The position numbers were made by a program, and so were the translations under genes. Shown here piece by piece: positions 1 to 59,041 of a DNA stretch of 64,000 bases. The notes beneath the pieces are model-generated. The model was given only the letters and a program-made list of their open reading frames with translations. It was not told the origin of the DNA and did no database searches. Source of the stretch: Escherichia coli (GTDB lineage: Bacteria; Pseudomonadota; Gammaproteobacteria; Enterobacterales; Enterobacteriaceae); assembly GCF_024502345.1 (NCBI RefSeq), contig NZ_JALDNN010000001.1; one strand, given 5' to 3'. Each line of letters opens with the position of its first letter. Positions within the stretch are counted from its first letter, which is position 1.

Positions 1-347
1 AATGTTTGCAAACGCTGGAGCGAGTGGTTGAAACCGGCGTGGACGGCATAAAGCTGCATCCGCTGCATATTGTGAAAGGCAGCATTATGGCGAAAGCCTG
101 GGAAGCGGGGCGTTTGAACGGTATTGAACTGGAGGATTACACGCTCACTGCCGGAGAAATGATTCGCCATACGCCACCGGAAGTGATCTACCACCGCATT
201 TCCGCCAGCGCCCGTCGTCCGACGCTGCTTGCTCCTCTGTGGTGCGAAAATCGATGGACGGGAATGGTCGAGCTGGATCGCTATCTGAATGAACATGGCG
301 TACAGGGATCGGCGCTGGGACGTCCGTGGCTACCTCCTACGGAGTAG
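1..347 (+). CDS. yhcC: radical SAM family protein YhcC, C-terminal part (gene begins upstream of the window)
   Basis: Open frame from window start to stop at 347; sits immediately upstream of arcB as in K-12; identity from synteny only. Confidence 0.7.
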   Translation, partial: CLQTLERVVETGVDGIKLHPLHIVKGSIMAKAWEAGRLNGIELEDYTLTAGEMIRHTPPEVIYHRISASARRPTLLAPLWCENRWTGMVELDRYLNEHGVQGSALGRPWLPPTE

Positions 348-442
348 GTCGTTGAGGGGAATTCCGCATTTCTCACACAATTTATAACGTAACTGTCAGA
401 ATTGGGTATTATTGGGGCAGGTTGTCGTGAAGGAATTCCCTA

Positions 443-2779
443 ATGAAGCAAATTCGTCTGCTGGCGCAGTATTATGTTGACCTGATGATGAAGTTAGGTC
501 TGGTGCGCTTCTCAATGTTGCTGGCGCTGGCCCTCGTCGTTCTTGCCATTGTGGTACAAATGGCGGTAACCATGGTGCTGCATGGTCAGGTCGAAAGCAT
601 TGATGTTATTCGTTCTATCTTCTTTGGTTTGCTGATTACGCCGTGGGCGGTCTACTTTCTATCGGTGGTCGTCGAGCAACTGGAGGAGTCACGACAACGT
701 CTGTCACGGCTGGTGCAAAAACTGGAGGAGATGCGCGAGCGCGATTTGAGCCTCAACGTTCAGTTAAAAGATAATATTGCCCAGCTAAATCAGGAAATTG
801 CCGTTCGTGAAAAAGCGGAAGCAGAACTGCAGGAAACCTTCGGCCAACTGAAAATTGAAATCAAAGAGCGCGAAGAGACACAAATTCAGCTCGAGCAGCA
901 ATCCTCATTCTTACGTTCCTTCCTTGATGCTTCACCCGACCTGGTTTTTTATCGTAACGAAGATAAAGAGTTTTCCGGCTGTAACCGCGCGATGGAGCTG
1001 CTGACCGGAAAAAGCGAAAAACAACTGGTTCATCTGAAACCTGCTGATGTTTACTCACCGGAAGCCGCTGCGAAAGTCATTGAAACCGATGAAAAAGTGT
1101 TCCGTCATAATGTGTCACTGACCTATGAACAGTGGCTGGATTACCCGGACGGGCGCAAAGCCTGCTTTGAAATCCGTAAAGTGCCGTACTACGACCGCGT
1201 GGGTAAACGTCACGGTTTGATGGGCTTTGGTCGCGACATTACCGAGCGTAAGCGGTATCAGGATGCGCTTGAACGGGCCAGCCGCGACAAAACGACGTTT
1301 ATCTCCACCATCAGTCACGAATTGCGTACACCGCTGAACGGTATCGTCGGCCTGAGCCGCATTCTGCTGGATACCGAACTCACCGCCGAGCAGGAAAAAT
1401 ATCTCAAAACTATCCATGTTTCGGCCGTCACGCTGGGGAATATCTTTAACGATATTATCGACATGGATAAGATGGAACGGCGCAAGGTCCAGCTTGATAA
1501 TCAGCCGGTTGATTTCACCAGCTTCCTTGCCGATCTGGAAAATCTCTCCGCATTGCAGGCGCAACAAAAAGGATTGCGCTTTAACCTGGAGCCTACGCTG
1601 CCATTACCGCATCAGGTCATTACCGACGGGACGCGTTTACGGCAGATCCTGTGGAACCTCATCAGTAACGCCGTCAAATTCACCCAGCAAGGCCAGGTTA
1701 CCGTGCGCGTGCGCTACGATGAAGGCGATATGCTGCATTTTGAAGTGGAAGACTCTGGTATCGGCATTCCGCAGGATGAGCTGGATAAAATCTTCGCCAT
1801 GTATTACCAGGTGAAAGACAGTCATGGCGGTAAACCTGCCACCGGCACCGGTATTGGTCTGGCCGTTTCTCGTCGTCTGGCGAAAAATATGGGCGGCGAT
1901 ATTACGGTTACCAGCGAACAGGGCAAAGGTTCAACCTTTACGTTGACGATCCACGCACCGTCGGTGGCAGAAGAGGTCGATGATGCGTTTGATGAAGACG
2001 ATATGCCTTTACCGGCGCTGAATGTGCTACTGGTGGAAGACATTGAACTGAACGTGATTGTTGCGCGTTCTGTGCTGGAAAAATTAGGTAACAGCGTTGA
2101 TGTCGCCATGACCGGCAAGGCGGCGCTGGAGATGTTTAAACCGGGCGAATACGACCTGGTGTTGCTGGATATTCAGTTGCCAGATATGACCGGGCTGGAT
2201 ATCTCTCGTGAACTGACGAAGCGTTATCCGCGCGAGGATTTACCGCCGCTGGTGGCCTTAACCGCTAACGTGCTGAAAGACAAACAAGAGTACCTCAATG
2301 CTGGAATGGATGATGTGCTGAGTAAGCCGCTTTCTGTTCCGGCGCTAACCGCGATGATCAAGAAATTCTGGGATACCCAGGATGATGAGGAGAGTACGGT
2401 GACGACAGAAGAGAACAGTAAATCAGAAGCATTGCTCGATATTCCCATGCTGGAACAGTATCTCGAACTTGTAGGACCGAAGCTGATCACCGACGGGTTA
2501 GCGGTGTTTGAGAAGATGATGCCAGGCTATGTCAGCGTGCTGGAGTCGAATCTGACGGCGCAGGATAAAAAAGGCATTGTTGAGGAAGGACATAAAATTA
2601 AAGGTGCGGCGGGGTCAGTGGGGTTACGCCATCTGCAACAGCTGGGTCAGCAAATTCAGTCTCCTGACCTTCCTGCCTGGGAAGATAACGTCGGTGAATG
2701 GATTGAAGAGATGAAAGAAGAGTGGCGTCACGACGTAGAAGTGCTGAAAGCGTGGGTGGCAAAAGCCACTAAAAAATGA
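443..2779 (+). CDS. arcB: aerobic respiration control sensor kinase ArcB
   Basis: 778 aa; N-terminal membrane segment, H-box (SHELRTPLN), ATPase, receiver and HPt regions; length and sequence as recalled for ArcB. Confidence 0.97.
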   Translation: MKQIRLLAQYYVDLMMKLGLVRFSMLLALALVVLAIVVQMAVTMVLHGQVESIDVIRSIFFGLLITPWAVYFLSVVVEQLEESRQRLSRLVQKLEEMRERDLSLNVQLKDNIAQLNQEIAVREKAEAELQETFGQLKIEIKEREETQIQLEQQSSFLRSFLDASPDLVFYRNEDKEFSGCNRAMELLTGKSEKQLVHLKPADVYSPEAAAKVIETDEKVFRHNVSLTYEQWLDYPDGRKACFEIRKVPYYDRVGKRHGLMGFGRDITERKRYQDALERASRDKTTFISTISHELRTPLNGIVGLSRILLDTELTAEQEKYLKTIHVSAVTLGNIFNDIIDMDKMERRKVQLDNQPVDFTSFLADLENLSALQAQQKGLRFNLEPTLPLPHQVITDGTRLRQILWNLISNAVKFTQQGQVTVRVRYDEGDMLHFEVEDSGIGIPQDELDKIFAMYYQVKDSHGGKPATGTGIGLAVSRRLAKNMGGDITVTSEQGKGSTFTLTIHAPSVAEEVDDAFDEDDMPLPALNVLLVEDIELNVIVARSVLEKLGNSVDVAMTGKAALEMFKPGEYDLVLLDIQLPDMTGLDISRELTKRYPREDLPPLVALTANVLKDKQEYLNAGMDDVLSKPLSVPALTAMIKKFWDTQDDEESTVTTEENSKSEALLDIPMLEQYLELVGPKLITDGLAVFEKMMPGYVSVLESNLTAQDKKGIVEEGHKIKGAAGSVGLRHLQQLGQQIQSPDLPAWEDNVGEWIEEMKEEWRHDVEVLKAWVAKATKK

Positions 2780-2891
2780 CCCCGGCTAGACCGGGGTGCG
2801 CGAATACTGCGCCAACACCAGGGAAATCTTGGCTGCGCCGTAAATTATTATGATGAGTTACAAGGGCACAGCACTGTTTTTCAGGCCGCAC
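2771..2891 (-). ncRNA. arcZ: ArcZ small RNA (SraH/RyhA)
   Basis: 121 nt; reverse complement reads GTGCGGCCTGAAAAACAGTGCTG...GGTCTAGCCGGGGTCATTTTTT, matching ArcZ as I recall it; 3' hairpin plus U-tract at 2771-2798 overlaps the arcB stop. Confidence 0.85.
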
Positions 2892-3008
2892 GCAGTTAAG
2901 ATAGCAAAACTTAAATGATTTGTTACATGAATCAGTTAAATGTGTGATGCGTACCATTTTTATTAAAAAAATTAATGTGTTTCAGTCAATTGCGAAAGGA
3001 TGATCACA

Positions 3009-3662
3009 ATGAAGAAAATTGGCGTAATTCTGAGCGGATGCGGCGTCTATGACGGTTCTGAAATTCATGAAGCGGTGTTGACGTTGTTAGCTATTTCACG
3101 CAGCGGTGCGCAGGCGGTCTGCTTTGCACCGGATAAGCAGCAGGTTGATGTTATCAACCATTTAACTGGCGAAGCGATGACGGAAACGCGCAACGTGCTG
3201 ATTGAAGCGGCACGAATAACGCGCGGTGAAATCCGTCCTCTGGCCCAGGCCGATGCCGCTGAACTGGATGCGTTGATTGTGCCGGGGGGGTTTGGCGCGG
3301 CGAAGAATTTAAGCAATTTTGCCACTCTTGGTAGCGAATGCACCGTTGACCGTGAATTAAAGGCGCTGGCACAAGCGATGCATCAGGCCGGAAAACCGCT
3401 TGGTTTTATGTGTATTGCCCCGGCGATGCTGCCGAAAATTTTCGATTTCCCGCTGCGTTTGACCATCGGTACTGATATCGATACCGCAGAAGTGCTGGAA
3501 GAGATGGGCGCGGAGCATGTGCCGTGTCCTGTCGATGATATCGTGGTTGATGAAGACAATAAGATTGTCACCACCCCAGCATATATGCTGGCGCAGAACA
3601 TTGCAGAAGCGGCGAGCGGCATTGATAAGCTGGTTTCCCGCGTGCTGGTTCTGGCTGAATGA
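3009..3662 (+). CDS. elbB: glyoxalase ElbB (DJ-1/PfpI-like)
   Basis: 217 aa from ATG at 3009 (track ORF starts 9 nt earlier); [21 protein letters not shown]. Confidence 0.9.
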
Positions 3663-4387
3663 GTAAAAGCCGCTTAACGGTGTTTAGTTTCGTTCGCCGT
3701 TTTCTTTTGCGGTTAATGGTTGTCCTCGCCGTTTTCTGGGGCGGGGGCATCGCGTTGTTTAGCGTTGCGCCTGTTCCCTTCTCAGCGGTAATGGTCGAGC
3801 GACAGGTCAGCGCCTGGCTGCATGGCAATTTTCGTTACGTGGCACATTCTGACTGGGTCAGTATGGATCAAATCTCGCCGTGGATGGGACTGGCGGTGAT
3901 TGCCGCAGAAGATCAGAAATTTCCTGAGCACTGGGGCTTTGATGTCGCTTCCATTGAGAAAGCCCTGGCGCACAATGAGCGCAATGAAAACCGTATTCGC
4001 GGTGCTTCAACGATTTCTCAACAGACAGCCAAAAATCTCTTTTTATGGGATGGGCGTAGCTGGGTTCGAAAAGGGCTGGAAGCCGGATTAACGCTGGGGA
4101 TAGAAACTGTCTGGAGCAAAAAGCGTATCCTGACGGTTTACCTGAATATCGCCGAATTTGGCGACGGTGTGTTTGGCGTCGAAGCTGCGGCACAACGTTA
4201 TTTCCACAAACCCGCGAGCAAACTTACCCGATCGGAAGCTGCCTTACTGGCAGCTGTATTACCTAATCCACTTCGTTTCAAAGTCTCCGCGCCATCGGGC
4301 TACGTGCGCAGCCGTCAGGCGTGGATTTTACGGCAGATGTATCAGTTAGGCGGTGAGCCGTTTATGCAACAACACCAGCTGGATTAA
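3659..4387 (+). CDS. mtgA: monofunctional peptidoglycan glycosyltransferase MtgA
   Basis: 242 aa; transglycosylase motifs; 4-nt overlap with elbB stop. Confidence 0.92.
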
Positions 4388-5229: not shown

Positions 5230-5502
5230 TTAATCTTCATCAAAACCAGAATTAAAGAGGGCGATAACGGCGGCCAGTGCTTCCTCTTCCTGTGGACCGG
5301 TCGCTTCAACTTCAATCTGCCGCCCTTTGGCAGAATCCAACATCAGCAGCGCAATAACGCTGTTGGCTTCAGCCTCGGTGCCTTCGTCATTACGTAACAG
5401 CACTTCAGCGTCAAAACCCTGCATTAATTCAAACAGCTTCATTGCAGGCCGGGCATGCATGCCCAGCTTGTTTGTGATTTCAACAGTTTGCTTGACGGTC
5501 AT
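5230..5502 (-). CDS. npr: phosphocarrier protein NPr
   Basis: 90 aa HPr-like protein ([10 protein letters not shown]); last gene of the rpoN operon. Confidence 0.93.
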
Positions 5503-8798: not shown

Positions 8799-9524
8799 TC
8801 AGAGTCTGAAGTCTTCCCCAAGGTATACACGCTTAACGTGTTCGTCTTGTAAGATTTCTGTAGGCGTGCCGTGGGCGATCAAATGCCCCTGACTGACGAT
8901 ATAAGCGCGTTCACAAACCGCCAGTGTTTCACGCACGTTGTGGTCAGTGATCAGCACGCCCAGGCCGCTGTCGCGCAGGTGCTCAATGATGCGTTTAATG
9001 TCGATAACCGAGATCGGGTCAACCCCGGCAAACGGTTCGTCGAGCAGAATAAATTTCGGATTCGCAGCCAGTGCGCGGGCAATTTCTACACGGCGACGTT
9101 CACCCCCGGAGAGTGACTGCCCCATGCTGTCACGCAGGTGCTCAATGTGAAACTCTTCCATCAGCTCGTTCGCGCGGTCTTCACGTTGTTCAGCAGACAA
9201 GTCGTCACGAATTTGCAGTACCGCCATCAGGTTATCGTAAACGCTGAGGCGACGGAAAATGGAGGCTTCCTGCGGCAGATATCCGATACCGCGGCGCGCG
9301 CGTGCATGCAGAGGCAGCAGACTGATATCGTCATCATCAATAATGATGTTGCCCGCATCGCGCGGCACAATGCCAACAACCATATAGAAAGTGGTGGTCT
9401 TACCGGCACCGTTTGGCCCCAGCAGACCGACAATTTCCCCGGAGTTGACGGTCAGGCTGACGTCTTCTACCACGCGACGGCCTTTATAGGCTTTTGCAAG
9501 GTTCTTTGCAGTTAATGTTGCCAT
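8799..9524 (-). CDS. lptB: LPS export ABC transporter ATPase LptB
   Basis: 241 aa; Walker [13 protein letters not shown] signature LSGGERRR. Confidence 0.97.
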
Positions 9525-9530
9525 AACGAA

Positions 9531-10088
9531 TTAATTACCCTTCTTCTGTGCCGGGGTCTGGCCTTTGTTGTTTTTGTCCTGCAGCTGCGACGGCACCAGA
9601 ACGGTGGTTACGCGCTTGCCTTTGTCGCTGAAAGCCTGCATTTTCTGCTCTTTCACCAGGTAAGTGATCTTATCGCCCTTAATGTTGCTATCGACCTGCT
9701 GCAGATAAGCATTACCCGTCAGAACGACAAAATCTTTTGCCAGTTCGTAGTGCATCTGGGAAGCGTGACCTTCAACGGGTTTACCGTTGTCCTGCATCTG
9801 GTAGAACGTTGCCGGTTTACCGTAGCCGTCAATCACTTCTTTACCTTGTTCGCCACCCGGACGGGTAACGACCACTTTGTCGGCATTAATTTTGATGGTG
9901 CCCTGGGTGACGATGACATTACCGGTAAAGGTAACCACGTTGCCTTGCATATCAAGAGATTGCTGGTCCGATTCAATGTGGATCGGCTGATCAGTGTCTC
10001 CGGTTACGGCAAATGCCGGAATGCTGGCGGCCAGAAGTGAGCTGGCAAGCACAAGATTAAGGCTGAGTTTGTTTGTTTTGAATTTCAT
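9531..10088 (-). CDS. lptA: LPS transport periplasmic protein LptA
   Basis: 185 aa from ATG at 10088 (MKFKTNKLSLNL); signal peptide; overlaps lptC 3' end. Confidence 0.92.
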   Translation of the reverse strand: MKFKTNKLSLNLVLASSLLAASIPAFAVTGDTDQPIHIESDQQSLDMQGNVVTFTGNVIVTQGTIKINADKVVVTRPGGEQGKEVIDGYGKPATFYQMQDNGKPVEGHASQMHYELAKDFVVLTGNAYLQQVDSNIKGDKITYLVKEQKMQAFSDKGKRVTTVLVPSQLQDKNNKGQTPAQKKGN

Positions 10089-10632
10089 AGGATGTTCTAA
10101 CCTTTTCAATCAGCTCGGCGTTCTTGCTGCGTAAGTTGCCGCGCATTTTCAGACCGCTGGAGTTAAATGTTGTTCCGTATAACGTGACGAGGTCTTCAGA
10201 GGTAACATCCTGCGTCACCAGATTGATCTGCGCGTTATCCGTCGTGATTCTGCGAAGTTGAGAGTCCGGCACAAGTGCGTTGACTTCAACGTGTCCATAT
10301 AAATAGAGCATCCGGTCATTGGTCAGCTTGGCTTTATCTGCTTTTACGGACCATGTCGGGATTTTATCCTTATCAAACGTGGTAAGTACCGGCTGCGTAA
10401 ACCACGAAACGGCCTGATCGGAATAATATTCAACGTGTTGAGCAATCAATCGATAGCTTAGTGCCCCTTCTGGGTTATAGACGAGCGTGTCCGTATGCTC
10501 GCTTTTATAGGTGGGATCATTGTTGTTGACGACCACCTGGGCGGTATCGTCTTTTTCGGCCATATTAATGCCGATCATCACCAGAACCGCCAGTGATAGC
10601 ACAATGATAACCCAACGTCTGGCTTTACTCAT
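10057..10632 (-). CDS. lptC: LPS export protein LptC
   Basis: 191 aa; single N-terminal TM helix. Confidence 0.93.
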   Translation of the reverse strand: MSKARRWVIIVLSLAVLVMIGINMAEKDDTAQVVVNNNDPTYKSEHTDTLVYNPEGALSYRLIAQHVEYYSDQAVSWFTQPVLTTFDKDKIPTWSVKADKAKLTNDRMLYLYGHVEVNALVPDSQLRRITTDNAQINLVTQDVTSEDLVTLYGTTFNSSGLKMRGNLRSKNAELIEKVRTSYEIQNKQTQP

Positions 10633-11195
10633 ATCGATTGCCCTTTGGCTTCATCCAGTTTGCCCCGCGCCAGGAGTAATAAGTCGCAAACTTCGCGCAC
10701 TGCGCCACGACCGCCAGCAATGCGCGTCACGTAATCGGCGCGCGGGATCAACAGTGGATGCGCATCGGCCACGGCGACGCTTAAACCCACTTTTTCCATT
10801 ACCGGCCAGTCGATGAGATCATCGCCGACATAAGCCACATTTTCTGGGGCAATCGCCAATTTTTCCAGCAGATCGCTAAAGGCGATCAGTTTGTTTGACT
10901 GCCCCTGATACAAGTGAGTGATCCCCAATGTGGCACAACGATCTTCTACCAGTTTAGCCTTTCGCCCGGTAATGATAGCGACTTCAATATCAGAGGTGAG
11001 CGCACAACGAATGCCATAACCGTCACGAACATTGAACGCTTTCAGCTCTTCGCCGTTATTGCCCATATAAATCAGGCCATCTGACAGTACGCCATCAACG
11101 TCGAGGATTAGCAGACGAATGTTCTCTGCTTTTGCTATAACGTCGGCGCTGACAGGGCCGTAACAGGTCGCAAGCGACGCACCTGCTTTGCTCAT
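10629..11195 (-). CDS. kdsC: KDO 8-phosphate phosphatase KdsC
   Basis: 188 aa HAD family (ILDVDGVLSDG); 4-nt overlap with lptC. Confidence 0.93.
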   Translation of the reverse strand: MSKAGASLATCYGPVSADVIAKAENIRLLILDVDGVLSDGLIYMGNNGEELKAFNVRDGYGIRCALTSDIEVAIITGRKAKLVEDRCATLGITHLYQGQSNKLIAFSDLLEKLAIAPENVAYVGDDLIDWPVMEKVGLSVAVADAHPLLIPRADYVTRIAGGRGAVREVCDLLLLARGKLDEAKGQSI

Positions 11196-11215
11196 TGTTG
11201 TTTATCCTTGAATCT

Positions 11216-12202
11216 TTACACTACGCCTGCACGCAGTAAATCATGCATATGTAACACACCGAGTAAATGGTCGCCATCGGCAACCATCACGGAGGTGATA
11301 TGGCGGGACTGCATTAAGTTCAGTGCCTCAACGGCCAGAATGCCAGGGCGCACGCGTATTCCCCCCGGCGTCATCACATCGGCAATACTTAACTGACGAA
11401 CATCCACGCCCATATCGAAGACACGGCGTAAATCACCGTCGGTAAAGATGCCTTCAATCATCATATTGTCATCGCAAATGACAGTCATACCAAGATTTTT
11501 GCGGGTAACTTCCAGCAACGCGTCACGCAGACTGGCCGTTTTCTTAACATGCGGGATCTCATCGCCCGTATGCATAATATCGTTTACGCGCAGCAGAAGT
11601 TTACGACCCAGTGCGCCGCCTGGGTGTGAGAGCGCAAAATCTTCAGCAGTAAAGCCGCGTGCTTTTAACAGCGCGACAGCGAGGGCATCGCCCATAACCA
11701 GCGTGGCGGTGGTGCTGCTGGTCGGTGCCAGCCCTAACGGACAGGCTTCTTTCGCTACTTTAACACACAGATGCACATCTGCGGCGCGCGCCATGCTGCT
11801 CTCCGGGCGACCGGTGATGCAGATTAACGGTACGTGAAGACGCTTAAGCACTGGAATTAAGGCAGTGATTTCGCTGGATTCACCTGAGTTAGAGATAGCA
11901 ATCACCACATCCTGTGGGGTGACCATGCCTAAATCACCATGCGCGGCTTCACCAGGATGGACGAAAAATGAAGGTGTACCGGTGCTGGCAAACGTTGCGG
12001 CCATTTTGCGCCCGATGTGCCCCGATTTCCCCATCCCCATGACGACAACTTTCCCTTTACACCAGAACATCTTTTCACAGGCAAGCGTGAAATTCTGATT
12101 GATGTATTGATCAAGCTCCGCCAGGCATTCACGTTCAATCGCCAGGACTTCTTTACCTGCTTGCTGAAAGTCAAAACCCGGTTGTAACTCTACGTGCGAC
12201 AT
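11216..12202 (-). CDS. kdsD: arabinose 5-phosphate isomerase KdsD
   Basis: 328 aa from ATG at 12202 (MSHVELQPGFD); SIS plus tandem CBS regions. Confidence 0.92.
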   Translation of the reverse strand: MSHVELQPGFDFQQAGKEVLAIERECLAELDQYINQNFTLACEKMFWCKGKVVVMGMGKSGHIGRKMAATFASTGTPSFFVHPGEAAHGDLGMVTPQDVVIAISNSGESSEITALIPVLKRLHVPLICITGRPESSMARAADVHLCVKVAKEACPLGLAPTSSTTATLVMGDALAVALLKARGFTAEDFALSHPGGALGRKLLLRVNDIMHTGDEIPHVKKTASLRDALLEVTRKNLGMTVICDDNMMIEGIFTDGDLRRVFDMGVDVRQLSIADVMTPGGIRVRPGILAVEALNLMQSRHITSVMVADGDHLLGVLHMHDLLRAGVV

Positions 12203-15558: not shown

Positions 15559-16211
<653 letters not shown>

Positions 16212-16212
<1 letters not shown>

Positions 16213-16505
16213 TGAGCGAGTCACTGAGCTGGATGCAGACGGGTGACACGCTGGCGTTATCCGGAGAGCTGGATCAGGACGTTCTGCTACCGCTTTGGGA
16301 AATGCGTGAGGAAGCGGTGAAGGGGGTTACCTGCATCGATCTTAGCCGTGTGTCCCGCGTGGATACGGGGGGACTGGCACTGCTGCTCCATCTTATCGAT
16401 CTGGCGAAAAAGCAGGGCAACAATGTGACGCTTCAGGGGGTAAACGACAAAGTGTATACCCTGGCGAAATTGTATAATTTGCCTGCTGATGTTCTGCCTC
16501 GTTAA
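16212..16505 (+). CDS. mlaB: STAS-domain protein MlaB
   Basis: 97 aa from ATG at 16212 (MSESLSWMQTGD); start overlaps mlaC stop (TAATG). Confidence 0.85.
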
Positions 16506-28411: not shown

Positions 28412-29260
28412 ATGAAACTCTTTGCCCAGGGTACTTCACTGGACCTTAGCCATCCTCACGTAATGGGGATCCTCAACGTCACGCCTGATTCCTTTTCGGA
28501 TGGTGGCACGCATAACTCGCTGATAGATGCGGTGAAACATGCGAATCTGATGATCAACGCTGGCGCGACGATCATTGACGTTGGTGGCGAGTCCACGCGG
28601 CCAGGGGCGGCGGAAGTTAGCGTTGAAGAAGAGTTGCAACGTGTTATTCCTGTGGTTGAGGCAATTGCTCAACGCTTCGAAGTCTGGATCTCGGTCGATA
28701 CATCCAAACCAGAAGTCATCCGTGAGTCAGCAAAAGTTGGCGCTCACATTATTAACGATATCCGCTCCCTTTCCGAACCTGGCGCTCTGGAGGCGGCTGC
28801 AGAAACCGGTTTACCGGTTTGTCTGATGCATATGCAGGGAAATCCAAAAACCATGCAGGAAGCCCCGAAGTATGACGATGTCTTTGCAGAAGTGAATCGC
28901 TACTTTATTGAGCAAATAGCACGTTGCGAGCAGGCGGGTATCGCAAAAGAGAAATTGTTGCTCGACCCCGGATTCGGTTTCGGTAAAAATCTCTCCCATA
29001 ACTATTCATTACTGGCGCGCCTGGCTGAATTTCACCATTTCAACCTGCCGCTGTTGGTGGGTATGTCACGAAAATCGATGATTGGGCAGCTGCTGAACGT
29101 GGGGCCGTCCGAGCGCCTGAGCGGTAGTCTGGCCTGTGCGGTCATTGCCGCAATGCAAGGCGCGCACATCATTCGTGTTCATGACGTCAAAGAAACCGTA
29201 GAAGCGATGCGGGTGGTGGAAGCCACTCTGTCTGCAAAGGAAAACAAACGCTATGAGTAA
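28412..29260 (+). CDS. folP: dihydropteroate synthase FolP
   Basis: 282 aa from ATG at 28412 ([12 protein letters not shown]); track ORF is 22 codons longer. Confidence 0.93.
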
Positions 29261-30817: not shown

Positions 30818-31150
30818 ATGTACGAAGCTCTTTTGGTAGTTTTCCTTATTGTGGCAATTGGCCTTGTTGGTCTGATCATGCTGCAGCAAGGTAAAGGCGC
30901 TGATATGGGAGCCTCCTTCGGAGCAGGCGCTTCCGCTACGCTGTTTGGTTCAAGTGGTTCTGGTAACTTCATGACCCGCATGACGGCGCTGCTGGCAACG
31001 TTATTCTTCATCATCAGTCTGGTGCTGGGTAACATCAATAGCAACAAAACCAATAAAGGTAGCGAATGGGAAAATCTGAGTGCACCGGCGAAAACCGAAC
31101 AAACTCAGCCAGCTGCTCCGGCTAAGCCGACCAGCGATATCCCGAACTAA
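30818..31150 (+). CDS. secG: protein translocase subunit SecG
   Basis: 110 aa from ATG at 30818 (MYEALLVVFLIVAIGL). Confidence 0.93.
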   Translation: MYEALLVVFLIVAIGLVGLIMLQQGKGADMGASFGAGASATLFGSSGSGNFMTRMTALLATLFFIISLVLGNINSNKTNKGSEWENLSAPAKTEQTQPAAPAKPTSDIPN

Positions 31151-31164
31151 AAAGTAGTATCCGT

Positions 31165-31251
31165 GCCGAGGTGGTGGAATTGGTAGACACGCTACCTTGA
31201 GGTGGTAGTGCCCAATAGGGCTTACGGGTTCAAGTCCCGTCCTCGGTACCA
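31165..31251 (+). tRNA. leuU: tRNA-Leu (anticodon GAG)
   Basis: 87 nt; acceptor stem GCCGAGG/CCTCGGT, anticodon loop CTTGAGG, long variable arm, 3' CCA encoded. Confidence 0.9.
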
Positions 31252-31262
31252 AATTCCAGAAA

Positions 31263-31288
31263 AGAGACGCTGAAAAGCGTCTTTTTTC
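31263..31288 (+). terminator. intrinsic terminator after secG-leuU
   Basis: Hairpin AGACGCTGAAAAGCGTCT followed by TTTTTT. Confidence 0.75.
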
Positions 31289-31325
31289 GTTTTATAAGCC
31301 AGGTTAAGTATTCTTAATTTGATAA

Positions 31326-32279
31326 CTATTTACCTAGGCATAAATCTGTTTCATCTAGTTTGAAATCTGTAATTTCTAACTTTTGCATTATTACCGGAAG
31401 CACTTGGTGAATTATTCTCATGCCAGTAAGGATCTCGTTCATGTATATATCTGGATGAATGCGAGATTTATTGAAATCGAAACGTTCGGCTTCTGCTGCA
31501 ACGCTAAGTTGGTCAGCGGTGTTATAAACCATTTCCAGAAGTTCGGCTCTTAACGGAATTCCCGCCCTGAATGCCATCATCTTGAGTTGATTCAACCAAT
31601 TTTCGTAGTCTTTTTTAACTCTATAACGAAATTCTTTAAAGTTTGACGCAACAGGAGTATCAATTTCAATTTTGCATGCAGCAAGTGATATCAATGAACT
31701 CTGAATATTGATGGCTTCGCTTGAATAGACATCTAAATCGTCGTCCTGAATCAACTCATCAACATATGCTATGTAGAAACCATAAACATCATTCAGAGCA
31801 TGATAAATATCATTAATTACAGAACAATGAGCATTGCTCTCTAATATCTCCCAAAAAGCCTCTTCTTCATCAGCATTATCGTCGTCAATATTAAGTCCTT
31901 CAGGAAAGGAAAGAGGTGTAGGAAAACCTATTCGCTTTAATACATCAATTGTTTCTTCAACCAAAAAACCATCTTCGTCAGTAAGAAGTTGTGTTATATA
32001 ACCCGTTTCAGCATCGTCCATAGCTCGTCGAGCAAGAAAATGGATAAGTCGATCCCATTTCTCAGCATTCGCGACTGAGCCTGTCCATTCAACTAGTTGA
32101 GGAGAATAATCTCCTATTTGTGTAATATTTCTGAACTTTTTTTCCATATCAGCGGACATGTGTTCCCCTTTTTTCCACTTGCTAATTTGTGTTGAGGAAA
32201 CACCTAAGTGGCTTGCTAAATCTTTTTGAGTGCATTTCAGAGTATGTAATGCGAGGCGTACAAAATATTCACCATTCAT
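31326..32279 (-). CDS. hypothetical protein, N-terminal XRE/Cro-type HTH plus unrecognised acidic C-terminal domain; occupies the slot held by yhbX in K-12
   Basis: 954-nt ORF (317 aa) with AAGGA 7 nt before the ATG; N-terminus TQKDLASHLGVSSTQISKWKKGE fits the Cro/C1 HTH pattern; AT-rich (about 33-36% G+C by hand count); function unknown. Confidence 0.75.
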   Translation of the reverse strand: MNGEYFVRLALHTLKCTQKDLASHLGVSSTQISKWKKGEHMSADMEKKFRNITQIGDYSPQLVEWTGSVANAEKWDRLIHFLARRAMDDAETGYITQLLTDEDGFLVEETIDVLKRIGFPTPLSFPEGLNIDDDNADEEEAFWEILESNAHCSVINDIYHALNDVYGFYIAYVDELIQDDDLDVYSSEAINIQSSLISLAACKIEIDTPVASNFKEFRYRVKKDYENWLNQLKMMAFRAGIPLRAELLEMVYNTADQLSVAAEAERFDFNKSRIHPDIYMNEILTGMRIIHQVLPVIMQKLEITDFKLDETDLCLGK

Positions 32280-32290
32280 CGGTCATTCCT

Positions 32291-32379
32291 TTTACTGAGC
32301 ATAAAAACATAAAGTAAAAATAGAATGCGCTGAAATTTACTTTATTTCATTTAACTTTTACTTTAATTCCGAATTCGGA
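32291..32379. promoter_or_regulatory. repeat-rich putative promoter/operator of the 317-aa HTH gene
   Basis: TTTACT at 32291 with inverted AGTAAA at 32313; direct TTTACTTTA at 32336 and 32357 (21-nt spacing); perfect 12-bp palindrome TCCGAATTCGGA at 32368-32379. Confidence 0.3.
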
Positions 32380-32418
32380 CATGGTGGCCCCTAAACGCAG
32401 TCACATTCTCTTAGCCGT

Positions 32419-32443
32419 AAAAAAAGGCCGCATTTGCGGCCTT
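32419..32443 (-). terminator. intrinsic terminator after argG
   Basis: On the minus strand: GGCCGCAAATGCGGCC followed by TTTTTTT. Confidence 0.75.
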
Positions 32444-32462
32444 TAGCACGAAAGCTATGATA

Positions 32463-33821
<1,359 letters not shown>

Positions 33822-44581: not shown

Positions 44582-46471
44582 ATGGCTGAATTCGAAACCA
44601 CTTTTGCAGATCTGGGCCTGAAGGCTCCTATCCTTGAAGCCCTTAACGATCTGGGTTACGAAAAACCATCTCCAATTCAGGCAGAGTGTATTCCACATCT
44701 GCTGAATGGCCGCGACGTTCTGGGTATGGCCCAGACGGGGAGCGGAAAAACTGCAGCATTCTCTTTACCTCTGTTGCAGAATCTTGATCCTGAGCTGAAA
44801 GCACCACAGATTCTGGTGCTGGCACCGACCCGCGAACTGGCGGTACAGGTTGCTGAAGCAATGACGGATTTCTCTAAACACATGCGCGGCGTAAATGTGG
44901 TTGCTCTGTACGGCGGCCAGCGGTATGACGTGCAATTACGCGCCCTGCGTCAGGGGCCGCAGATCGTTGTCGGTACTCCGGGCCGTCTGCTGGACCACCT
45001 GAAACGTGGCACTCTGGACCTCTCTAAACTGAGCGGTCTGGTTCTGGATGAAGCTGACGAAATGCTGCGCATGGGCTTCATCGAAGACGTTGAAACCATT
45101 ATGGCGCAGATCCCGGAAGGTCATCAGACCGCTCTGTTCTCTGCAACCATGCCGGAAGCGATTCGTCGCATTACCCGCCGCTTTATGAAAGAGCCGCAGG
45201 AAGTGCGCATTCAGTCCAGCGTGACTACCCGTCCTGACATCAGCCAGAGCTACTGGACTGTCTGGGGTATGCGCAAAAACGAAGCACTGGTACGTTTCCT
45301 GGAAGCGGAAGATTTTGATGCGGCGATTATCTTCGTTCGTACCAAAAACGCGACTCTGGAAGTGGCTGAAGCTCTTGAGCGTAACGGCTACAACAGCGCC
45401 GCGCTGAACGGTGACATGAACCAGGCGCTGCGTGAACAGACACTGGAACGCCTGAAAGATGGTCGTCTGGACATCCTGATTGCGACCGACGTTGCAGCCC
45501 GTGGCCTGGACGTTGAGCGTATCAGCCTGGTAGTTAACTACGATATCCCGATGGATTCTGAGTCTTACGTTCACCGTATCGGTCGTACCGGTCGTGCGGG
45601 TCGTGCTGGCCGCGCGCTGCTGTTCGTTGAGAACCGCGAGCGTCGTCTGCTGCGCAACATTGAACGTACTATGAAGCTGACTATTCCGGAAGTAGAACTG
45701 CCGAACGCAGAACTGCTGGGCAAACGCCGTCTGGAAAAATTCGCCGCTAAAGTACAGCAGCAGCTGGAAAGCAGCGATCTGGATCAATACCGCGCACTGC
45801 TGAGCAAAATTCAGCCGACTGCAGAAGGTGAAGAGCTGGATCTCGAAACTCTGGCTGCGGCACTGCTGAAAATGGCACAGGGTGAACGTACTCTGATCGT
45901 ACCGCCAGATGCGCCGATGCGTCCGAAACGTGAATTCCGTGACCGTGATGACCGTGGTCCGCGCGATCGTAACGACCGTGGCCCGCGTGGTGACCGTGAA
46001 GATCGTCCGCGTCGTGAACGTCGTGATGTTGGCGATATGCAGCTGTACCGCATTGAAGTGGGCCGCGATGATGGTGTTGAAGTTCGTCATATCGTTGGTG
46101 CGATTGCTAACGAAGGCGACATCAGCAGCCGTTACATTGGTAACATCAAGCTGTTTGCTTCTCACTCCACCATCGAACTGCCGAAAGGTATGCCGGGTGA
46201 AGTGCTGCAACACTTTACGCGCACTCGCATCCTCAACAAACCGATGAATATGCAGTTGCTGGGCGATGCACAGCCGCATACTGGCGGTGAGCGTCGTGGC
46301 GGTGGTCGTGGTTTCAGTGGCGAGCGTCGTGAAGGCGGTCGTAACTTTAGCGGTGAACGCCGTGAAGGTGGTCGTGGTGATGGTCGTCGTTTTAGCGGCG
46401 AACGTCGTGAAGGCCGCGCTCCGCGTCGTGATGAATCTACCGGTCGTCGTCGTTTCGGTGGTGATGCGTAA
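44582..46471 (+). CDS. deaD: DEAD-box RNA helicase DeaD (CsdA)
   Basis: 629 aa from ATG at 44582 ([13 protein letters not shown]); motifs [15 protein letters not shown]; RG-rich C-terminal repeats. Confidence 0.9.
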
Positions 46472-51164: not shown

Positions 51165-51689
51165 GTGTTGGATAAACTGCGTTCCCGCATTGTGCATTTG
51201 GGACCATCTCTGTTGAGTGTACCGGTAAAACTGACGCCATTTGCGCTAAAACGCCAGGTTCTTGAGCAGGTCTTAAGCTGGCAATTCCGCCAGGCGCTGG
51301 ATGATGGTGAGCTGGAGTTCCTTGAAGGCCGCTGGTTAAGTATTCATGTGCGTGATATTGACCTGCAATGGTTTACCTCGGTGGTGAATGGCAAACTGGT
51401 GGTCAGCCAGAACGCGCAAGCTGATGTGAGTTTTAGTGCCGACGCCAGCGATCTGCTGATGATTGCGGCGCGTAAACAAGATCCGGATACGCTCTTCTTC
51501 CAGCGTCGGCTGGTGATTGAAGGCGATACGGAACTGGGGCTGTATGTGAAAAACCTGATGGACGCCATTGAACTGGAGCAAATGCCGAAAGCCTTACGCA
51601 TGATGCTGCTGCAACTGGCGGATTTTGTTGAGGCGGGAATGAAAACCGCGCCTGAAACCAAACAGACATCGGTAGGTGAACCATGCTAA
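51165..51689 (+). CDS. ubiT: SCP2-domain protein UbiT (YhbT)
   Basis: 174 aa if initiated at GTG 51165, with AGGGAG 8 nt upstream; divergent from ubiU. Confidence 0.8.
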   Translation: MLDKLRSRIVHLGPSLLSVPVKLTPFALKRQVLEQVLSWQFRQALDDGELEFLEGRWLSIHVRDIDLQWFTSVVNGKLVVSQNAQADVSFSADASDLLMIAARKQDPDTLFFQRRLVIEGDTELGLYVKNLMDAIELEQMPKALRMMLLQLADFVEAGMKTAPETKQTSVGEPC

Positions 51690-52186
51690 TTCGAGTAGAA
51701 ATTCCCATTGATGCGCCGGGTATTGATGCCCTGCTGCGTCGTTCATTCGAAAGTGATGCGGAAGCGAAGCTGGTTCACGATCTGCGTGAAGATGGCTTTC
51801 TGACGCTGGGGCTGGTGGCGACAGATGACGAAGGTCAGGTCATTGGCTATGTGGCATTTAGTCCGGTTGATGTGCAGGGCGAAGACCTGCAATGGGTCGG
51901 CATGGCACCGTTGGCGGTTGATGAAAAATACCGTGGACAGGGGCTGGCACGCCAACTGGTCTATGAAGGACTCGATTCGCTTAATGAGTTCGGCTATGCC
52001 GCAGTGGTGACGCTGGGCGATCCGGCGCTGTACAGCCGTTTTGGCTTTGAACTGGCGGCACATCACGATCTGCGTTGCCGCTGGCCGGGCACTGAAAGCG
52101 CCTTCCAGGTACATCGTTTAGCGGATGACGCGTTGAATGGCGTAACTGGTCTGGTTGAGTATCACGAGCATTTCAATCGCTTTTAA
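51683..52186 (+). CDS. yhbS: GNAT family N-acetyltransferase YhbS
   Basis: 167 aa. Confidence 0.85.
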
Positions 52187-52475
52187 TCTCCGGGGTTTGC
52201 AGACTGCTTAACAGCTCTGCAAACCCTGCGCCTTCCGCTACCAGACGCTCTTTTTGCCGTTTGGTCAGTTGCTTAACGCGATATTCCGCCCGTAACGCCA
52301 GCGAACGATCGCCCACTGGCGCAGAAAACGCCAGCGTCAGTTCTCCTTTCCCGCGCAGTGCTTTCGCCCCTTTGCCGCTTTGGTGCTGCTGATAGCGGCG
52401 TTCGACATCCGTGGTGATCCCGGTATAAAGCTTATTGTCGGCGGTACGGATCAAGTAAAGAAACCAGGGTGCCAT
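52173..52475 (-). CDS. yhbQ: GIY-YIG domain protein YhbQ
   Basis: 100 aa ([21 protein letters not shown]). Confidence 0.85.
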
Positions 52476-52525: not shown

Positions 52526-52948
52526 ATGGAAACACTCATCACCATCAGCCGTTGGTTGGCAAAACAACATGTTGTCACCTGGTGTGTGCAGCAGGAAGGG
52601 GAACTCTGGTGCGCCAATGCCTTTTATCTTTTTGATGCACAGAAAGTCGCCTTCTACATTTTGACGGAAGAAAAAACACGTCATGCGCAGATGAGTGGGC
52701 CGCAGGCGGCAGTTGCCGGAACGGTAAACGGTCAGCCGAAAACGGTAGCGTTAATTCGCGGCGTGCAGTTTAAAGGCGAGATCCACAGGCTGGAAGGTGA
52801 GGAAAGCGACCTCGCACGCCAGGCGTACAATCGTCGCTTTCCGGTTGCCAGAATGCTGTCGGCTCCGGTGTGGGAAATCCGGCTCGATGAAATCAAATTC
52901 ACCGACAACACGCTGGGCTTTGGTAAAAAAATGATTTGGCTACGCGGC

Positions 52949-52969
<21 letters not shown>
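52526..52969 (+). CDS. yhbP: UPF0306 protein YhbP
   Basis: 147 aa. Confidence 0.85.
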
Positions 52970-54230
<1,261 letters not shown>

Positions 54231-56651: not shown

Positions 56652-57047
56652 TTATGAGTGGTCATTAAAGGCATCCTTAATCCACTCAACCTCATTCCCG
56701 GTGAAGGCTACCACATCGAACCGGCAATCCACAGTATCAAAACTCCCATTATGACGCGCGAGCCACAAGCGGGCAGTCTGTAATAATTTGTGTTGTTTGC
56801 TGCGGGTCACACTGGCTGCCGCGCCGCCATAAAGCGCAGAGCGGCGATAGCGTACCTCGACAAAAACGGTGGTCCGGCCTTCACGCATTATCAGATCGAT
56901 CTCGCCGCCACGCTCGTTCACGTTAGCGGCGATAAACCGCAGTCCTTTGCCTTCCAGCCAGCGAAGCGCTTGTGCTTCCCACGCATCGCCGGTCTGTTTG
57001 GTGGTTAACTGGCGGGGACTACCTGACCTTGTTGGTACTGTAGCCAT
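56652..57047 (-). CDS. yraN: UPF0102 protein YraN
   Basis: 131 aa; 43-nt overlap with lpoA 3' end. Confidence 0.85.
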
Positions 57048-59041
57048 GATAACTTCCTGTTAATCACGCAATCCGGGTTTGCCGTCAGGCTTCCGGTATT
57101 ACCGTTGATTTCAAAACCCTGAACCTGGCGCATTTGTGAGAAATGATTTGCCAGCGACCAGGCATCGACGCCCATCGCATACATGCGAGCCAGTGAATAA
57201 TCGTTATTCACCGCGCTGAGTGCCTGCTGCATTAACGGCAGATTACCGCCCGCCAGCATCGGGATTTCGCTGTACTGCAAACCTTCCATCTCCAGACGGA
57301 AATCCGGGCCTGCGGTGCCTTGTGCGCTGCGGGAGCTGGCGTACAGCATTGCACCGCTCTGGCTACCGTTACGCATGGCGATCATCGGTTTGATAAAAGC
57401 GATTTCACCCGGCGTTGCCACAATGTACACCGCATCGACACGACCGCCATTATTGGTGAACTGGTCATCGGTTGGCGTGGTTTGCAGCGTTGGATTGTTG
57501 GTCGTCATACCGGAGTCGGTTGTCGCTCTGGGAGTAATCGGTGTACCCGTTAAAGCGATACCAGAACCGCCGTTAACACCCGCGCGTAATTCGCTGGTGG
57601 AACCAAATTTTTGTTGCAGAACGGTGCCGCCGCCCAGTTTCTGCCACTCTTGCGCAAACGCATTGGCTACGCGATCGCCCAATGAACTGCGTGGGATCAG
57701 CACCAGCGGCGCTTGTTTACCCTGGTCACGAATATGACGCGCTGCATCGCGCGCTTCGTCTTCCGGTGAAAGCGCGAAGTAACAAATATTGACGCGGTTT
57801 TCGATATTCTCCGGCTGGTTCAGTGCCAGTACGTTCAGCGGGGTGTTGCTCTTCAGCAACTCTTCAACGTTATTTTTCAGCAACGGACCAACCACAATAC
57901 TCGCGCCATCCTGCTGAACCTGGCTTAAGATCTGGCTAAGTGGTTGTGATGAGGTATCGTAGATTTTCAGCTCTGCGGATGGATTTGCGGGTGCGCTTAC
58001 CGCTGCGGTGCTTGTGGCCGGGGCGCTTACAGGCACCGGCTGGGCCGCAGGCTGTTCACCGGTCAGATCGCTAACCGAGGCTTGTGCCGGGCTGGCAACG
58101 CCATCCACGGTTTGCGGCTGAGGTTGTTCAGCTACGTCTGCGGCAGGTGCGGCAGCTACCTGAGCCGCCACTGGCTGAGTGCCGATATTTTTCGCCGCTT
58201 CAAAGCCTTGCTGAATAGTGCGACCAAATACCGCTGCCTGGCCATTCAGCGGCAACAGCAGGGCGATTTTGTTGGTCGAGGCTGGTTTAAACGCTTTTAC
58301 GTTAACCAACTGCGTTGGCAGCATTTTCGCGCCCGGATTGTTCGGATAACGTTTTTGCCAGTCGGCGATCCCGGCTTTCATCATGTCGGGATCGTTACGG
58401 TTATCAAACCAGACGCGCTGCAGATCCAGCCAGCCTTGCAGAATATTTTCGTCGGCGTTGATCACCAGCGTATTCGCCTGTTCCTGAGTCATGGAGGAGA
58501 GCGCCTGCCAGGTGGCATCAATATTCTGCTGTTTTTCTTTCGCGCCGAGCAGCGGTTCCTGAGCAATTAACGCGCGCAGTAAATCAATGGAAGGACGCCC
58601 CTGGCTGGCATCGATTTTTGCCTGCCAGTAACGCGCTTGCTGGTTTTGTTCTAAATCGGCAGGTGTGATTTTCGCCAGCAAGTTTTGCGCGCCAGCAAAA
58701 TCTTTCTGCGCCAGTTTAATCTCTACCGCCAGCAGTGTTTTCTCGCGACGCTGAGAATCGTTCAGTTCTTGCGGTAGTTGGTTAAACAACTCAACCGCCT
58801 GCCCGGTTTTACCTTCTTTCACCAGTGCACGAATGGCGAGTAATTGCCAGTTGATCCTGGTATCATCAGAGCTTTGCTGCATCTGCTGAAGATAAAAGGC
58901 AGAATCAGCCTGCGCCGTGCCCTGCATATAAGCAGTGGACTGATCGGGAGTATGGGTGCCACAACCGGCGAAAATCAGGGCTGCCAGAACAACAGGCAGA
59001 CAACGCGCGGCTTTCAAACGAGAAAATGTTGAGGGTACCAT
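57005..59041 (-). CDS. lpoA: PBP1A activator lipoprotein LpoA
   Basis: 678 aa; lipobox FAGC; Ala/Pro/Gln-rich linker. Confidence 0.9.

Follow-up and report, generated by a model that had tools for sequence, protein, structure and literature searches.

The start codon of lptA lies inside lptC, and we consider it probable that ribosomes initiate lptA there de novo, using a ribosome-binding site embedded in lptC, and not by termination-reinitiation. Coupling of lptA to lptC would be weak at most. The window analysed here is a 64,000-nt stretch of the Escherichia coli contig NZ_JALDNN010000001.1, in which the two genes overlap by 32 nt. This overlap is a real and ancient feature of the yrbG-kdsD-kdsC-lptC-lptA-lptB operon. 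It is also already known from the reference annotation and the literature, in which Benedet et al. gave its length as 32 nt (PMC4986956). In the comparison of related loci, what is conserved is where lptA starts, within the Tyr/Asn-Glu codons of LptC, and not how far that start lies from the lptC stop. What the comparison adds is detail and no surprise, namely a start embedded in the upstream gene, synonymous sites that are frozen, and a stop that drifts against a fixed start.

The genes in the window run yhcC-arcB ... lptB-lptA-lptC-kdsC-kdsD-yrbG / mlaFEDCB ... lpoA-rsmI-yra, in an orientation inverted relative to that of K-12. A preliminary description of this DNA had listed six gene overlaps and had stated that they match K-12, and both statements were borne out. 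Direct translation gave intact ORFs for all genes named in the six overlaps and located every overlap at the coordinates given below. The same six overlaps are annotated in K-12 MG1655 and also in the PGAP annotation of strain 88-3493. On alignment with K-12, the three junctions in the lpt and mla genes were identical, and the other three differed at 1-3 bases that left starts and stops untouched. This arrangement is the usual one for this part of the E. coli genome and has been published before. The genes and junctions are as follows.

9531-10088, minus strand: lptA, 185 aa, with an N-terminal signal peptide (ORF and translation)
10057-10632, minus strand: lptC, 191 aa (ORF and translation; same annotation in K-12)
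10057-10088, minus strand: lptC/lptA overlap, 32 nt, out of frame (direct translation, K-12 annotation)
10629-11195, minus strand: kdsC (direct translation)
10629-10632, minus strand: overlap of the kdsC stop and the lptC start, ATGA, 4 nt (translation and K-12 annotation)
15577-16212, plus strand: mlaC (direct translation)
16212-16505, plus strand: mlaB (direct translation)
16212, plus strand: overlap of the mlaC stop and the mlaB start, TAATG, one shared A (1 nt) (translation and K-12 annotation)
51683-52186, plus strand: yhbS (direct translation)
52173-52475, minus strand: yhbQ (direct translation)
52173-52186, convergent: yhbS/yhbQ 3'-end overlap, 14 nt (translation and K-12 annotation)
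52526-52969, plus strand: yhbP (direct translation)
52949-53467, minus strand: yhbO (direct translation)
52949-52969, convergent: yhbP/yhbO 3'-end overlap, 21 nt (translation and K-12 annotation)
56652-57047, minus strand: yraN (direct translation)
57005-59041, minus strand: lpoA (direct translation)
57005-57047, minus strand: lpoA/yraN overlap, 43 nt (translation and K-12 annotation)

Counted from the annotation of strain 88-3493 together with the ORFs of the window, there are 13 overlapping pairs, seven of which were absent from the preliminary description.

3659-3662, same strand: elbB/mtgA overlap, 4 nt (annotation/ORFs)
4384-4387, convergent: mtgA/yrbL overlap, 4 nt (annotation/ORFs)
5499-5502, same strand: rapZ/npr overlap, 4 nt (annotation/ORFs)
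29253-29260, same strand: folP/glmM overlap, 8 nt (annotation/ORFs)
39666, same strand: rbfA/truB overlap, 1 nt (annotation/ORFs)
44582-44589, same strand: yrbN/deaD overlap, 8 nt (annotation/ORFs)
51683-51689, plus strand: ubiT/yhbS overlap, 7 nt (annotation/ORFs)

The lpt locus is nearly universal in the species. Of 5426 complete E. coli genomes, 5425 have a match to at least 80% of a 2.5-kb lpt segment (window 9000-11500), and in 5405 the identity is at least 99%; the segment is about 99.8% identical to that of strain 88-3493. Elsewhere the window is not K-12, since it is about 1 kb shorter in the tRNA-Leu/argG region, at the position of yhbX. This interval is occupied by yhbX in K-12 and in strain 88-3493, and in the window by a 317-aa ORF (31326-32279, minus strand) with a weak N-terminal HTH_19 match. 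Of the 5426 complete genomes, 236 have a match to at least 80% of a 1.3-kb segment carrying this ORF (31150-32470).

The 32 nt of the overlap comprise the last 10 lptC codons and the stop, and the first 10 and two-thirds codons of lptA. The Pfam LptC domain covers residues 9-183 of the 191 residues of LptC, and the Pfam LptD_N domain covers residues 37-149 of LptA. The shared bases encode residues past most of the former domain and before the latter. A run of 10 codons free of stops is not unlikely by chance, with a probability of about 0.6 in random sequence. What goes beyond chance is conservation, the overlap being kept in 80/80 Enterobacteriaceae species and in 8/9 distant loci.

The 80 species came from a genome scan with LptA, and their loci were retrieved with six peptide patterns, one of which was MKFKTNKL, so that the sample is biased somewhat toward a conserved LptA N-terminus. 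Because the species are related, invariance counts among them are not independent events, although comparisons within the alignment share the same tree. In a protein homologue search with LptA, the matches listed were all at least 82% identical. Nine more distant loci, whose LptA is 41-52% identical, were obtained by a 50%-cluster search and contig look-ups.

The overlap is 32 nt long in 76 of the 80 species and 17, 17, 101 and 170 nt in the other four, and it is never zero. Both 17-nt overlaps (loci L067 and L075) result from an earlier lptC TAA. In Entomohabitans teleogrylli (L061) and Tenebrionibacter intestinalis (L072) the lptC TAA is mutated to TCA and TAC, and lptC runs 170 and 101 nt into lptA, respectively, the junction lying near locus position 2530. 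In eight of the nine distant loci the lptA ATG is embedded in the LptC codons (TAT/AAT)GAA, and the overlaps counted from the homologous ATG are 8, 14, 14, 17, 20, 20, 20 and 26 nt. In the ninth (L088) lptA starts at the homologous ATG and lptC ends upstream of it, leaving no overlap; the loss, in an AT-rich genome (GC 20%), came through a premature lptC stop. All overlap lengths equal 2 mod 3, as would be expected if the frame relationship is ancestral and the lptC stop alone has moved.

A natural LptC-LptA fusion, taken as a hint of frameshifting, was considered and rejected. The one candidate (P0189, 348 aa) came from a single metagenome scaffold (L096 1501-2547; ENA ERZ919311 scaffold_2922), in the context kdsD-kdsC-[lptC-lptA]-lptB-rpoN, and is most likely an indel or a pseudogene. 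Its ORF contains a partial or truncated LptC domain and a seemingly out-of-frame stretch, followed by a complete LptA that has a signal peptide of its own. In appearance it is an lptC that runs on into lptA after a frameshift, and not a true fusion.

The overlap could be an artefact of annotation if the true lptA start were another codon. There are three in-frame candidates: TTG at 10109, ATG at 10088 and GTG at 10052, which is codon 13. The overlap would vanish only with the GTG, which lies 4 nt after the lptC stop, whereas a start at the TTG would lengthen it. A remark in Rhodius et al. (PMC1312014) has been counted for misannotation of the lptA start; it does not readily agree with later work, which puts lptAp1 and lptAp2 within lptC, upstream of lptA. 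Since the signal peptide is cleaved off, the N-terminus of mature LptA does not tell which codon is the initiator. Against misannotation, the ATG is invariant in 80/80 Enterobacteriaceae species, and the Tyr codon of LptC around it is TAT, never TAC, throughout this set. In contrast, GTG stands at codon 13 in no more than about 35 of the 79 distinct sequences, and a start there would give LptA a signal peptide without a charged N-region. In the distant homologues, plausible LptA signal peptides all begin at the homologous ATG, and the upstream in-frame TTG is closed by a stop in one distant locus. The comparative evidence argues against misannotation, which we regard as extremely unlikely.

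Conservation at the junction is concentrated in a short block around the lptA start, which contains a Shine-Dalgarno-like motif. Two candidate promoter elements were matched in the 3' part of lptC.

10057-10115, minus strand: near-invariant block of 59 nt, from -27 to +32 counted from the lptA ATG; it includes the ribosome-binding region of lptA, its start codon and the overlap
10101-10107, minus strand: GAAAAGG, Shine-Dalgarno-like, inside the lptC codons GAA-AAG-GTT, 12 nt before the lptA ATG
10149-10176, minus strand: sigma-E-like match GGAACAA-N16-TCTGA inside lptC (consensus scan), candidate for a published lptAp promoter
10110-10139, minus strand: second sigma-E-like match GCAACTT-N18-GCTGA (consensus scan), candidate, with its -10 box in the invariant block

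The block is the lowest-diversity 59-nt window of the 1.13-kb lptC-lptA alignment of 79 loci (0.065 against a median of 0.222). Across 179 windows, the diversity of lptC third positions has a median of 0.516 and reaches its minimum, 0.155, in the last 19 codons, where about 47% of these positions are invariant compared with 6% elsewhere. The third positions of lptA show a diversity of 0-0.12 inside the overlap and of 0.46 elsewhere. The common variable sites inside the overlap are only +8, +11, +14 and +29, which are third positions in lptC and second positions in lptA. Changes at these sites are silent in LptC and alter the N-region of the LptA signal peptide (F/S, K/R, T/I, L/R). The frozen synonymous sites in the last 20 or so lptC codons are a clean example of an embedded start constraining the gene upstream. 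At the kdsC/lptC junction (10616-10648) third-position diversity is also low, 0.21 in the first 19-codon window against about 0.5, which suggests the constraint usual near a translation start.

GAAAAGG is invariant in 79 distinct sequences, the lptC third positions included, and purine-rich equivalents are found upstream of the lptA ATG in the distant loci. We infer that it is the Shine-Dalgarno element of lptA. Its spacing of 12 nt is beyond the optimum, and the embedded site may thus be weak by itself. The 131-nt lptA start region folds no better than shuffled sequences (z = +0.11), and no Rfam match at E <= 1 was found in 9400-10800. Minor promoters, the sigma-E-dependent lptAp1 and lptAp2, have been reported within lptC, upstream of lptA (PMC4986956). 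At the first sigma-E-like match listed above, both boxes vary between species at lptC third positions, which gives the candidate no independent support. A sigma-70 promoter scan around the overlap regions found none, counts being at or below the shuffled expectation.

It is conceivable, though unlikely, that the 59-nt block is a dedicated cis-regulatory element that sets the LptC:LptA ratio under LPS stress, in which case the overlap itself would be selected and not merely tolerated. Such an element might take the form of a promoter or leader, a small RNA target or a nuclease target.

On the reading that we prefer, the LptC codons TAT-GAA (Tyr-Glu) supply the start codon of lptA, and the ribosome-binding region, GAAAAGG with an A-rich unstructured stretch, would lie in the last 20 or so lptC codons, LptC continuing for 10 codons beyond the lptA start in the other frame. 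Ribosomes would most likely start lptA de novo, whether on the long operon transcript or on a shorter one made from a minor promoter within lptC, and not by reinitiation after the lptC stop 32 nt downstream. The overlapping bases encode the tail of LptC past its Pfam domain and, in LptA, the positively charged beginning of the signal peptide. Their double use is seen in the frozen synonymous sites, and the few changes within the overlap are silent in lptC and absorbed by the signal peptide. Coordinates, conservation, the pattern of constraint and the absence of predicted structure are results of the analysis, and the mode of initiation is inferred. We take de novo initiation as the best reading because of the reported range of coupling, the unstructured start region and the promoters inside lptC.

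The preliminary description had regarded the same-strand overlaps as consistent with translational coupling. This is reasonable for kdsC/lptC (4 nt) and mlaC/mlaB (1 nt), and doubtful for the 32-nt and 43-nt overlaps. Start and stop codons touch in the first two pairs and do not in lptC/lptA and lpoA/yraN. Termination-reinitiation has been demonstrated experimentally in other gene pairs at spacings of -4 and -1 nt (PMC10666635, PMC12548453), and kdsC/lptC and mlaC/mlaB are standard stop-start overlaps that are plausibly coupled in this way. The review of Brown and Wade (PMC12548453) gives -4 to +3 nt as the optimum for coupling. Lengthening the overlap weakens it more sharply than widening the gap does, and one systematic study saw none at -25 nt; the review also records conflicting results on coupling and distance. 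Huber et al. (2023, PMC10666635) showed that reinitiation in E. coli requires overlapping or nearly touching stop and start codons.

For lptA, termination-reinitiation would mean that a ribosome ends lptC at 10057-10059, stays on the mRNA, slides back some 30 nt and initiates again at the ATG of lptA, so that LptA output follows that of LptC; a similar process would act at lpoA/yraN over 43 nt. LptC and LptA contact each other physically in a single machine, and gene overlaps are over-represented among the subunits of complexes (PMC10666635). Bidirectional scanning has been proposed (PMC12548453), as has 70S scanning, and the conservation of the overlap in 80/80 species and 8/9 distant loci can be counted on the same side. 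However, the steep fall of efficiency with overlap speaks against it, and so does the finding that, in an araBp-lptC strain with lptC expression off, lptAB are transcribed from lptAp1 and lptAp2 only, that is, expressed without translation of lptC (PMC4986956). Moreover, relatives keep the start context with overlaps that measure anywhere from 8 to 170 nt, so the position of the stop is seemingly not selected. We consider reinitiation at these long overlaps quite unlikely. Coupling might instead proceed by RNA unfolding, as at the MS2 coat/lysis junction, if translation of the end of lptC or lpoA melted a structure that hides the downstream ribosome-binding site. Unfolding is the accepted mechanism for the -50-nt overlap in MS2 (PMC12548453), and the yraN region has a predicted fold of this kind, described below. 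At lptA, however, the folding score of the 131-nt region and the A-rich start region speak against such a structure, the invariance of the block leaves no room for covariation, and the stem at yraN is short (5+2 pairs) and statistically weak. We give this mechanism a small chance of being right. Translation of lptC might also interfere with that of lptA. Ribosomes on the last 30 nt of lptC would cover the lptA start, heavy lptC translation would limit lptA initiation on the operon mRNA, and the internal promoters would supply LptA independently. A ribosome footprint of about 30 nt does span the whole overlap, and separate lptA promoters inside lptC fit such an interplay (PMC4986956). This interplay is compatible with de novo initiation and not exclusive of it, and we consider it unlikely. 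De novo initiation at the embedded site stays the reading that we prefer, and a long overlap should not be taken as evidence of translational coupling.

The same logic would apply to yraN, with a Shine-Dalgarno-like motif inside lpoA and an overlap encoding the N-terminus of YraN before its domain. The ATG at 57047 is the only viable start of yraN: the frame is closed by a TAA four codons before it, and the next candidate, GTG at codon 43, falls within the Pfam UPF0102 domain, whose first residue is 24. The Shine-Dalgarno-like motif, AGGAAG, is strong and lies 6 nt upstream of the ATG. In the region 57005-57066 (minus strand), UUAAC.GG just upstream of this motif pairs with CC.GUUAA at the lpoA stop, enclosing the start region. 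The fold is slightly better than chance (z = -1.68), 16 of 200 shuffles folding as well, so that RNA unfolding may contribute to yraN expression. For experimental design, deleting or recoding the 3' end of lptC hits the start region of the essential lptA, and doing so at the 3' end of lpoA hits that of yraN.

For the convergent pairs, the preliminary description had proposed shared terminator space. This finds no support at yhbS/yhbQ, where folding gave no hairpin with a T-run, and may be a weak possibility at yhbP/yhbO. A terminator scan found none in either overlap, with counts at the shuffled expectation. At yhbP/yhbO a predicted hairpin (52939-52970) spans the overlap, with a U7 (52924-52930) on the yhbO (minus) strand only (z = -1.0). 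The T-run begins 7 nt beyond the stem, which is why the simple scan missed this hairpin. Hairpin and U7 could form a yhbO terminator inside the coding end of yhbP.

Compared with known systems, the lptC-lptA junction agrees in its genes, their order, the 32-nt length and the junction sequence with the overlap published for the yrbG-lptB operon of K-12 (Sperandeo, Martorana, Benedet et al.; PMC4986956). No difference from the K-12 locus was seen at the junction, although the strain of the window is itself not K-12 and carries an HTH gene in place of yhbX. The motifs of the coupled -4 (ATGA) and -1 (TAATG) overlaps (PMC10666635, PMC6728339) are exactly those at kdsC/lptC and mlaC/mlaB, and rapZ/npr, elbB/mtgA and rbfA/truB also have stop-start motifs of this reinitiation class. 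In contrast, lptC/lptA (-32) and lpoA/yraN (-43) have starts far upstream of the stop, outside the range in which reinitiation has been demonstrated. They resemble the MS2 coat/lysis overlap (-50 nt) in being long, same-strand and out of frame, the second gene starting deep within the first. The MS2 pair is coupled by unfolding of a hairpin, whereas the predicted structure is not significant at the lptA start and is weak at yraN.
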